A stretch of 24,000 nt of DNA from Thermodesulfobacteriota bacterium (GTDB lineage Bacteria; Desulfobacterota; Desulfobacteria; Desulfobacterales; Desulfosudaceae). The position numbers and the translations under genes were made by a program. The stretch covers positions 107,030-131,029 of the forward strand of contig JBFMDX010000006.1 in assembly GCA_040753795.1 (NCBI GenBank), given 5' to 3'. Under the pieces are notes generated by a model. It had not been told where the DNA came from. It was given only the letters and a program-made list of their open reading frames with translations, and did not search any database. Positions 10,070 through 11,587 of this stretch are shown one piece after another (the stretch's first letter is position 1; the number at the start of each line of letters is the position of its first letter).

Positions 10070-10390
10070 CTAAAGATTTTGATCGGCAGCCGGGCACGAC
10101 TTGCCCGGCTCAATCACGCAGCAACAGTCGCCCCCGGTCCTGCCCAGCATGGAATTGATGACGGCGGCGGCGCAGCCCACGCCGCTCTGGACGGTGATGG
10201 CGCCGGCCGGGCAATTCATGGCGCAGGCGCCGCATTCCATGCAGGCGTCCCGGTCAATTATCGCCGCCCGGCCGTTATCCAGCGACAGCACCCCGCGGGG
10301 GCAGACGTCGGCGCACAGGCCGCAGCCGACGCAGCGTTCCGCGTCCAGCGCCAGGGTGACCACGTCCTTCAGATAACGCAGTTTTTCCAT
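10070..10390 (-). CDS. hgcB: HgcB, 2x[4Fe-4S] ferredoxin of the mercury-methylation pair
   Basis: Two CX2CX2CX3CP motifs: CVGCGLCADVCP and CMECGACAMNCP. The second contains the HgcB signature C(M/I)ECGA at nt 10223-10243. Conserved lone Cys in GVGCAAAV and a C-terminal vicinal Cys run (DCCCV). AGGAG lies 6 nt before ATG 10390 (MEKLRYLKD). Sits immediately downstream of hgcA. Confidence 0.9.
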   Translation of the reverse strand: MEKLRYLKDVVTLALDAERCVGCGLCADVCPRGVLSLDNGRAAIIDRDACMECGACAMNCPAGAITVQSGVGCAAAVINSMLGRTGGDCCCVIEPGKSCPAADQNL

Positions 10391-10429
10391 AACGTCTCCT
10401 AACCCGAATATTTTCATGAAATATCCGGG

Positions 10430-11587
10430 CTAACCCACCAATAAGGCGACCAGCCAGCCGACGACGCCGACGATAGCGGCGATGATCTGCAGGGGAACCG
10501 CCCATTTCATCTCCGCTTTGACCCCGGAAAGGGAAGTATAGGTCGAAGCGCCGGTAAAATTCATCCCCAGATACGACGAAAACGCAGCCGAAACCGGAAG
10601 CAGCGGCAGGTATTTCCCCATTCCAACCGGCTCGGGCCAGGAGATGACGATCAGGACGGCTGTCAGCAGGCCGGCGACGGCGCCTTTGATGGAAAAAGAC
10701 CGCCCCGGCAGCCAGGGCAGCAGCAGCGGCGTCAGCACCGCCCCGGCAATGATGGCGCCGGCCATAATCGCCGCGGCAAAAAGCCCGTTGGAAAGCACAC
10801 CGGTCAGAAACGGCGCTCCCTTCTCAAGACCGCCCGCCAGGAAAGCGACCAGAAAGATAACCGGCGCCCATTTCAACGCCGGGATCAGTTCCATGGGCAC
10901 CAGGGCGGCCCGGTCCCGCAGGGGAAACCGTTTCTGGCGCATTTCTTTCGTGGCCTTCAGGCCCGAGTCAAGAAACGCCGGCAGGTCTTCTGCTTCCACC
11001 GGGCCATAAACAGCCGAGAACCCGGTCTGTTTCCTGACCAGATGCGCGGCGACTCCCGGAGCGCCGAGCTGAGGCAGAATCAGCTGCCGTCCGGAAACGA
11101 CCTGCTCCAGACGGCTGGACCCGATCCTTGTCACCAGTTCCCCGGTGCCGAAAGTCCCCTTACCGGCCGCGCACCAGACGTTCACGCCTTTGGTGTCCAG
11201 GACCAGAATCCAGGCATCCCGGCCCGGCAGGGCGGAACGGAGGCAATCAAAACTCATTTTATAATTGGCCGTCACCAGCACCGGAGCCTTTTCCGTGGGT
11301 GTTCCCAGCGCATAGAGCCCGGGGGAAACGGTATAATTCATCCGTCCGATTCCCCATCTGGCTTTTATGGTTCCCAGATAATCGGCCGCCGTCAGCATGG
11401 ATGTGACTTGAGGGATCCCGCCCGGTTTCGTCTGAAGGGTGCCTTTGACAAAGGGCTGTCCGGAATCGGGGATTTCTATCTTTCCGGGGAAGGCCGCCGG
11501 CAGGCAGGACGGGGGCATGGACGGCAGGATTTCAATCCCGGCTCCGGCCGCCCGGACTTCTCCGGGTATTTTTTTCCGGCTTCTCAT
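10430..11587 (-). CDS. hgcA: HgcA, membrane-anchored corrinoid protein of the mercury-methylation pair
   Basis: Cap-helix signature NVWCAAGK at nt 11159-11182, within PVLVTANYKMSFDCLRSALPGRDAWILVLDTKGVNVWCAAGKGTFGT (CFeSP-like corrinoid-binding domain). The C-terminal ~150 aa is strongly hydrophobic (about 4-5 TM segments). The start at 11587 is the only Met upstream of the conserved N-terminal region apart from Met24, and neither has a well-spaced RBS. Confidence 0.92.
   Translation of the reverse strand: MRSRKKIPGEVRAAGAGIEILPSMPPSCLPAAFPGKIEIPDSGQPFVKGTLQTKPGGIPQVTSMLTAADYLGTIKARWGIGRMNYTVSPGLYALGTPTEKAPVLVTANYKMSFDCLRSALPGRDAWILVLDTKGVNVWCAAGKGTFGTGELVTRIGSSRLEQVVSGRQLILPQLGAPGVAAHLVRKQTGFSAVYGPVEAEDLPAFLDSGLKATKEMRQKRFPLRDRAALVPMELIPALKWAPVIFLVAFLAGGLEKGAPFLTGVLSNGLFAAAIMAGAIIAGAVLTPLLLPWLPGRSFSIKGAVAGLLTAVLIVISWPEPVGMGKYLPLLPVSAAFSSYLGMNFTGASTYTSLSGVKAEMKWAVPLQIIAAIVGVVGWLVALLVG

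Follow-up and report, generated by a model that had tools for sequence, protein, structure and literature searches.

Introduction

No genetic marker for the microbial production of methylmercury, a neurotoxin that builds up in fish, is known other than the hgcA-hgcB gene pair (hgcAB), and each confidently identified carrier extends the catalogue of putative methylators. The products of the pair, HgcA and HgcB, are experimentally characterised as a mercury methylase in strain ND132 (Pseudodesulfovibrio mercurii / Desulfovibrio desulfuricans). Here we analyse two genes at positions 10070-11587 on the minus strand of a 24,000-nt stretch of DNA (contig JBFMDX010000006.1, hereafter the window) whose host is an uncultured, Desulfobacterales-like Thermodesulfobacteriota bacterium of the sulfate-reducer type. 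Profile searches, motifs, a tree and the comparison with ND132 indicate that these genes very probably encode a genuine unfused HgcA-HgcB pair, that is, a predicted membrane-associated, cobalamin- and Fe-S-dependent methyltransferase complex converting Hg(II) to methylmercury.

Most of what is known about the biochemistry of the pair comes from ND132. Cobalamin binding with ligation by a Cys thiolate, and the formation of methyl-Co(III) from S-adenosylmethionine (SAM), are known only for the ND132 enzyme, and the methyl donor is SAM and not methyl-tetrahydrofolate, which updates the textbook mechanism (Zheng et al. 2024). Mutagenesis in the same strain supports the importance of HgcA Cys93, HgcB Cys73 and the HgcB Cys94/95 pair (Cooper 2020; Zheng 2024); in particular, HgcB Cys73 is essential and at least one Cys of the HgcB tail is required for full activity (Cooper et al. 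2020). HgcAB expression is extremely low, at about 0.0004% of total protein (Zheng 2024). The community protocol (Capo et al. 2022) states that Hg methylation is found in every isolate with unfused hgcAB that has been tested, and not in carriers of a fused gene. The distribution of hgcAB reflects patchy gain and loss (McDaniel et al. 2020).

Results

Both proteins of the window match the curated profiles of the mercury methylation family. HgcA scores 446.5 bits against the NCBIfam HgcA equivalog NF040863 (cut-off 275, E = 5.4e-134), with a match that spans residues 58-382 of the protein and positions 1-323 of the 325 in the profile, and HgcB scores 120 bits against NF040864 (cut-off 99, E = 2.8e-35). 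Chance as a source of these matches is far exceeded. When the same proteins were compared with the models of their paralogues, the outcome was different: against NF003195, the gamma-subunit model for corrinoid iron-sulfur protein (CFeSP), HgcA reaches 65 bits where the cut-off is 306 and aligns only with profile positions 322-445 of 450, and against the fused HgcAB-like model NF043039 HgcA and HgcB reach 190 and 58 bits, respectively, where the cut-off is 285. Every sequence-level hallmark of a true unfused hgcA-hgcB pair for which we tested was found.

The same assignment follows from a neighbour-joining tree that was built on the corrinoid domain, with the CFeSP sequences 2h9a and 4djd as root. 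The window HgcA and its closest relative, which is 83% identical, fall within the HgcA clade among sequences of Desulfobacterales/Syntrophales type, in a clade that also holds ND132, Geobacter sulfurreducens and others, and CFeSP stands on a long separate branch. An earlier note on this DNA, made without database searches, had proposed the hgcA-hgcB identity and had suggested a search with curated HgcA and HgcB profile hidden Markov models (HMMs) and a phylogeny against CFeSP as ways to check it. Both were carried out here and, together with the motifs and the collinearity with ND132, they support the identification, with the fused group judged by HMM score only.

The nearest other HgcA is encoded on contig Ga0394877_0158479 of the Joint Genome Institute (JGI) metagenome 3300037851. 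Both loci have the gene order vWA, hgcA, hgcB, and the identity between them is 83% for HgcA, 84% for HgcB and 95% for the vWA-domain protein. Beyond this relative, no other HgcA exceeds 62% identity to that of the window, and those from GTDB species representatives stay at or below 58%; the other near neighbours in the tree clade include the proteins P0003, P0006, P0038 and P0083, from metagenome-assembled genomes (MAGs) of uncultured Thermodesulfobacteriota of Desulfobacterales/Syntrophales type. Because of these identities, we regard the window HgcA as an ordinary member of a moderately divergent branch and not as a new type. Of 80 related genome loci, 76 gave an HgcB-like match, and wherever the gene order was inspected this match came directly behind hgcA.

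The two proteins are already in GenBank. MEW6078037.1, named 'MAG: mercury methylation corrinoid protein HgcA [Thermodesulfobacteriota bacterium]', is 100% identical to the window HgcA, and MEW6078036.1, named 'mercury methylation ferredoxin HgcB', is 100% identical to the window HgcB; both are encoded on a MAG contig of 223,570 bp. The hgcAB interpretation is therefore supported but not new, since the exact proteins already bear these names. In a contig index the GenBank form of HgcA gave no match, and the 385-aa form led to a contig from a Logan assembly (run SRR29635779) whose sequence agrees with window positions 10029-17587 at 100% identity.

The hgcA gene occupies positions 10430-11587 of the minus strand and encodes a corrinoid methyltransferase homologue of 385 aa when read from the ATG at 11587. 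Its corrinoid-binding region (10901-11470) carries a CFeSP-like domain, recognised by Pfam as CdhD (PF03599) at residues 85-203 with 33.9 bits (cut-off 24.8). Within this domain lies the cap-helix motif NVWCAAGK, at residues 136-143 and at positions 11159-11182 in a regular-expression search, and the motif is invariant across 16 aligned HgcA sequences. Cys139 of the motif (Cys116 in the GenBank numbering) aligns with Cys93 of ND132, which we take to be the residue proposed as the lower axial thiolate ligand of cobalt. A cap helix of the form N(V/I)WC(A/S)(A/G)GK is the high-stringency criterion for HgcA (Capo et al. 2022), and the occurrence of NVWCAAGK and of the HgcB motif CMECGA on one contig corresponds to the high-stringency class of the community protocol.

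The corrinoid domain is followed by a predicted transmembrane domain (residues 230-384, positions 10436-10900). The hydropathy profile of this C-terminal half has four strong peaks and a weaker one, and an AlphaFold2 model, which we used only for the helix count and for a coarse fold match, places five helices at residues 230-253, 260-288, 298-316, 329-349 and 355-384, of which the fourth is less hydrophobic. In the 16-sequence alignment the membrane domain carries the conserved motifs LLPWLPGR and MNFTGASTYTSLSGV; indeed, the window HgcA keeps 103 of the 103 columns that are invariant in these sequences, including LLPWLPGR and MNFTGxSTYTSxSGV. A Foldseek search with the model retrieved 9a0b_A, a deposited and published HgcAB model, as the best match, followed by CFeSP large subunits, and a PDB sequence search with HgcA returned only CFeSP large subunits (2h9a/4c1n/4djd). 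In Pfam scans, the pair matched no more than the generic CdhD domain and families of ferredoxins. The earlier note had described this gene as a 385-aa minus-strand open reading frame (ORF) with NVWCAAGK at exactly the positions found here, inside a CFeSP-like corrinoid domain and ahead of a C-terminal half with several membrane-spanning segments, and each element of that description agrees with our results.

Which ATG initiates hgcA is a minor uncertainty that leaves the functional domains unaffected. GenBank starts the protein at Met24 (ATG 11518, 362 aa), while the Logan and JGI gene callers start it at Met1 (385/389 aa). Between Met1 and Met24 the 83% identical relative differs at three codons non-synonymously and at two synonymously, with no insertion or deletion. 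As a side observation on this region (11450-11587, minus strand), the long-form HgcA of relatives carries a variable N-terminal extension (alignment columns 1-55) with CC or CxC motifs, such as SCCPQGG, SCCPKSG, SCCPGGG, TCCSQRG, SSCCGPDD and ACTCGEND. The extension of the window protein has a single Cys, Cys28 (PPSCLPAAF), which is retained with the GenBank start at Met24. It is possible that the Cys-bearing extension represents a thiol site preceding the corrinoid domain; it has no mention in the literature that we examined.

In the case of hgcB, the longest ORF spans positions 10070-10417 (115 aa), and an internal ATG at 10390 gives a ferredoxin with two [4Fe-4S] motifs and 106 aa (10070-10390, minus strand). 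This ATG lies 39 nt past the hgcA stop, so that hgcB is a separate gene; it is preceded by the Shine-Dalgarno-like sequence AGGAG (10396-10400) with a 5-nt spacer, and it is the start used both in GenBank and by the Logan gene caller. The choice is also supported by the gapless alignment with ND132 HgcB, in which the Cys residues bear identical numbers. With ATG 10390 as the start, HgcB has Cys at positions 20, 23, 26, 30, 50, 53, 56, 60, 73, 89, 90, 91 and 99. The first CX2CX2CX3CP motif, CVGCGLCADVCP (10298-10333), contains Cys20, 23, 26 and 30, and the second, CMECGACAMNCP (10208-10243), contains Cys50, 53, 56 and 60 and includes CMECGA at 10226-10243, an instance of the C(M/I)ECGA motif that the community protocol uses for hgcB. 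The Cys residues with the same numbers in ND132 HgcB have been assigned to clusters A and B (Cooper et al. 2020). Cys73 (10172-10174), in the segment GVGCAAAV, has the same number as the essential Cys73 of ND132 in the gapless alignment. The tail contains Cys89-Cys90-Cys91 (10118-10126) and, further on, Cys99 (10094-10096); the 84% identical relative keeps the CCC but not Cys99. HgcB tails with up to four Cys have been reported (Cooper et al. 2020).

The earlier reading of this second gene also stands almost entirely. The ferredoxin 39 nt downstream with its two cluster motifs, the ATG at 10390 supported by a ribosome-binding site, the lone Cys in GVGCAAAV as residue 73 and the C-terminal CCC were all recovered, and the importance that the note gave to the HgcA Cys, HgcB Cys73 and the C-terminal Cys residues of ND132 on the basis of mutagenesis is borne out by Cooper 2020 and Zheng 2024. 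The presence of C(M/I)ECGA was likewise correct, but its range, given as 10223-10243, included one codon too many.

With respect to the genes around the pair, no mer genes were found among the ORFs of the window, as the earlier note had already reported; the 40 bits that a GltD/NfnB-like ORF reaches with the MerA model fall far below the cut-off of 454. Near hgcAB, the window also lacks an ArsR-like regulator. On the same strand, a gene whose product is a vWA-domain protein of 396 aa ends 37 nt ahead of hgcA; this gene itself begins 8 nt after an AAA+ ATPase gene, and because of the common strand and these short gaps the co-transcription of the three genes is possible.

The AAA+ and vWA genes close a larger block upstream of hgcA (11625-18342, minus strand) that comprises genes for an LVIVD-repeat protein, SSB, TatA (15058-15255, plus strand), a 382-aa protein, the AAA+ ATPase and the vWA protein. 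This block is syntenic and widely conserved in Thermodesulfobacteriota, including relatives that are free of hgcAB (loci L085, L087 and L088). What follows the vWA gene differs: hgcAB in the window and in locus L084, RtcB in L085 and cold-shock genes in L087 and L088. The location of hgcAB behind a block that hgcAB-free relatives also keep is consistent with the known patchy gain and loss of the pair. The AAA+ and vWA proteins are 72-82% identical in many Thermodesulfobacteriota and are absent from 80 of 80 other hgcAB loci; since they are missing from those loci and present in hgcAB-free relatives, we rejected the idea that they are hgc-specific partners. Base composition was likewise of no use as a signal of horizontal transfer, because the 62% G+C of hgcAB, compared with 55% for the window, lies within the 61-65% of other coding stretches.

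Several other genes of the window were recorded as observations in their own right. The 382-aa ORF of the block (13707-14855, minus strand) has no Pfam match and gives a weak match to a methionine-synthase (MetE-like) model (E = 5e-6, 26 bits); it is kept at 62-69% identity directly upstream of AAA+/vWA in relatives, and the three genes may form a unit. At 19158-23137 (plus strand) a gene for MTHFR (MetF-like) precedes one for a 923-aa HdrA-like polyferredoxin flavoprotein, and at 23466-23951 (plus strand) lies an ORF with an MvhD/FlpD-like start and a winged-helix domain. An NfnAB-like pair (a GltD-type and an FAD/NAD subunit) adjoins an Rrf2 regulator at 2910-5166 (minus strand). Such genes of C1 metabolism and electron bifurcation are a typical feature of Desulfobacterota capable of the Wood-Ljungdahl pathway, and nothing in their distance from hgcAB links them to the pair. 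Finally, directly after a DsrE/DsrF-like (DrsE_2) gene at 8486-9064, a 65-aa Cys-rich ORF (9125-9322, plus strand) has the pattern CKDTCPICTRA...CPACRSYKK (CX3CX2C and CX2C); it gave no significant family match, and its product could be a small protein that binds metal or forms a zinc ribbon.

Downstream of hgcB there is a non-coding stretch of 750 nt that contains two inverted copies of an element of about 250 nt, around 68% identical to each other, at 9366-9620 (plus strand) and 9798-10064 (minus strand). A perfect hairpin of 13 bp (CTTTTCTTTGG(Y)GCAAAGAAAAG) opens each copy, and each folds as a long hairpin, with z = -5.6 for the copy beside hgcB. No RNA family was detected by Rfam in the window at gathering thresholds, with only chance-level matches downstream of hgcB. 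Related copies, 78% identical over 257 nt, occur at unrelated sites on two contigs of the JGI metagenome Ga0209163 (L081 and L082). The stems are conserved among the copies and show a few compensatory changes; the centre varies or has been deleted. The element is probably a miniature dispersed repeat, of the type of miniature inverted-repeat transposable elements (MITE) or repetitive extragenic palindromes (REP). The end of the Logan contig falls within the repeat, as expected at such a sequence. We considered that the repeats might mark a mobile hgcAB cassette and rejected this, since the closest relative is entirely different after hgcB and the repeat is found elsewhere at unrelated sites; because that relative has the pair without the element, the repeat is not part of an hgcAB cassette.

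Discussion

A model of how the pair would work can be drawn from the ND132 enzyme (Cooper 2020; Zheng 2024). The components visible in the sequence are, for HgcA, a cytoplasmic CFeSP-type corrinoid domain with the cap-helix Cys139 and a predicted five-helix membrane domain or anchor and, for HgcB, an 8Fe ferredoxin that has Cys73 as an additional residue and ends in a flexible, Cys-rich tail. By analogy with ND132, the two clusters of HgcB would deliver low-potential electrons to bring the HgcA corrinoid to Co(I), which SAM would then methylate; in the resulting methyl-Co(III) the lower axial ligand would be the thiolate of the cap-helix Cys. The methyl group would be passed to an Hg(II) bis-thiolate as a carbanion or as a radical. 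The Cys residues of the HgcB tail and Cys73 have been proposed, from the work on ND132, to handle or shuttle Hg(II) or CH3Hg+, and probably do so here.

What do these results imply for the organism? The host is a predicted methylmercury producer, by homology, and we consider the prediction reasonable because methylation of Hg is seen in each tested isolate that has unfused hgcAB and not in fused-gene carriers. Several points nevertheless weigh against this interpretation or against parts of it. The host is uncultured and is called a methylator from its sequence only, and genes for corrinoid synthesis or uptake are absent from the 24,000-nt window. The hgcA start codon is ambiguous, a convincing ribosome-binding site was not seen before either candidate ATG, and neither a promoter-like site nor a dedicated regulator is evident upstream of the gene. 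The neighbour-joining tree is a simple one, without bootstraps or any fused HgcAB sequence, and the AlphaFold2 model of HgcA is of moderate quality, with a mean predicted local distance difference test (pLDDT) score of 64 and values below 50 for the cap-helix segment 134-145, a segment that is poorly modelled without the cofactor.

In one alternative the pair works as described but was selected for a different corrinoid-dependent reaction, to which the methylation of Hg would be incidental, such as the reductive dehalogenation of halomethanes or an arsenic- or metalloid-linked metabolism. We find this somewhat unlikely, and it does not exclude our assignment of the locus as a true hgcAB pair. 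The literature reports that hgcAB confers no Hg resistance and calls the methylation cometabolic, many genomes have ArsR-like regulators and ars genes next to hgcAB, and a 2026 preprint describes dechlorination of carbon tetrachloride (CCl4) by heterologously expressed HgcAB; in the window, moreover, there are no mer genes near the pair and nothing in the locus that links it to mercury. Against this, no ars genes, dehalogenase genes or regulator stand beside the pair in the window, the neighbourhood varies across 80 hgcAB loci, and the dechlorination claim comes from one preprint without independent confirmation. A stronger version, in which the pair was selected for a non-mercury role (halomethane dehalogenation or another transfer of methyl or halide groups), is possibly transcribed by read-through from AAA+/vWA and methylates Hg only by accident, is unlikely and draws no specific support from the window. 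The question of the native function of HgcAB is one for the whole family, to which this locus contributes nothing specific.

It might also be that the genes are true hgcAB and yet bring about no appreciable Hg methylation in situ, either because they are silent or poorly expressed, because corrinoid is lacking or because of cryptic inactivating substitutions. In line with this, hgcA has no promoter-like site, regulator or strong ribosome-binding site of its own, HgcAB is in any case known at extremely low levels, and the window HgcA departs from the consensus at several non-invariant positions (for example, FDCLR for FDRLR) and has a shorter loop between transmembrane helices 3 and 4. However, both ORFs are intact and keep all invariant columns of the family, the pair is also intact in the 83-84% identical relative, every tested isolate with unfused hgcAB produces methylmercury, and a same-strand gene 37 nt ahead of hgcA makes co-transcription possible, all of which renders such inactivity very unlikely.

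That the large ORF is instead a non-methylating paralogue, either AcsC/CdhE, a CFeSP subunit from the Wood-Ljungdahl pathway, or one of the fused HgcAB-like proteins, with an unrelated ferredoxin beside it, is hardly tenable and is refuted at the sequence level: Pfam recognises just the generic CdhD family, close homologues carry the label 'acetyl-CoA synthase subunit gamma' in several sources and the window holds MTHFR and HdrA-like genes at one end and NfnAB at the other, but the CFeSP model is matched only over its last ~125 positions and far below its cut-off (65 against 306), the fused model is likewise missed (190 against 285), the ORF has a five-helix membrane domain and no CFeSP N-terminal Fe-S or TIM-barrel parts, the cap helix has a Cys where CFeSP has a Thr, hgcA and hgcB are two ORFs with a stop codon and 39 nt between them, and the tree places HgcA far from CFeSP.

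We therefore retain the assignment as an unfused hgcAB pair, with the qualification that it is an already known, textbook pair and that there is nothing unusual about either protein. The locus adds little to the catalogue, as it comes from the phylum richest in hgcAB, shows all the standard features and already bears the label in GenBank. Its modest value resides in the moderately divergent HgcA branch and in the existence of hgcAB-free relatives with the same upstream block, since that block, with its differing gene after vWA, could serve to delimit or date one event of hgcAB gain or loss.

The large subunit of CFeSP (AcsC/CdhE) has a homologous corrinoid domain with a cap helix, detected with an E of ~2e-8 by sequence and of ~1e-5 to 6e-5 by Foldseek, at approximately 27-29% identity over some 130 residues. 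Unlike the window HgcA, which has a membrane domain instead, CFeSP consists of an N-terminal [4Fe-4S] domain and a TIM barrel in addition to the corrinoid domain, and it carries Thr at the position of the cap-helix Cys. The methyl group's origin is also different, being methyl-tetrahydrofolate via MeTr in CFeSP and SAM in HgcAB. The fused HgcAB-like proteins, such as Q8U2U9 of Pyrococcus furiosus, have the cap-helix motif, a membrane domain and the ferredoxin motifs in common with the window pair, but they show no Hg methylation in culture and are encoded by one gene, whereas the window has two.

From ND132, whose HgcA and HgcB reference sequences were taken from the supplement of Cooper et al. 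2020, the window pair differs in its neighbourhood, in the ends of its proteins and in overall sequence. An ArsR-like regulator lies upstream in Desulfovibrio/Pseudodesulfovibrio and none lies upstream of hgcA in the window. The window HgcA has 23-46 more N-terminal residues, depending on the start, and because of this longer N-terminus its cap-helix Cys is residue 139 or 116 and not 93. The HgcB tail is 11 residues longer, and in it the CCC at 89-91 and Cys99 replace the terminal Cys94-Cys95 of ND132. In architecture the two systems are alike: both have an NVWCAAGK corrinoid domain joined to a five-helix membrane domain, followed by a separate gene for a ferredoxin with two [4Fe-4S] clusters. 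The HgcA proteins are only 43% identical from end to end (ND132 residues 3-338 of 338), and the HgcB proteins only 51% identical in a gapless alignment across residues 1-87, in which nine Cys residues (20, 23, 26, 30, 50, 53, 56, 60 and 73) have identical numbers in the window and in ND132.

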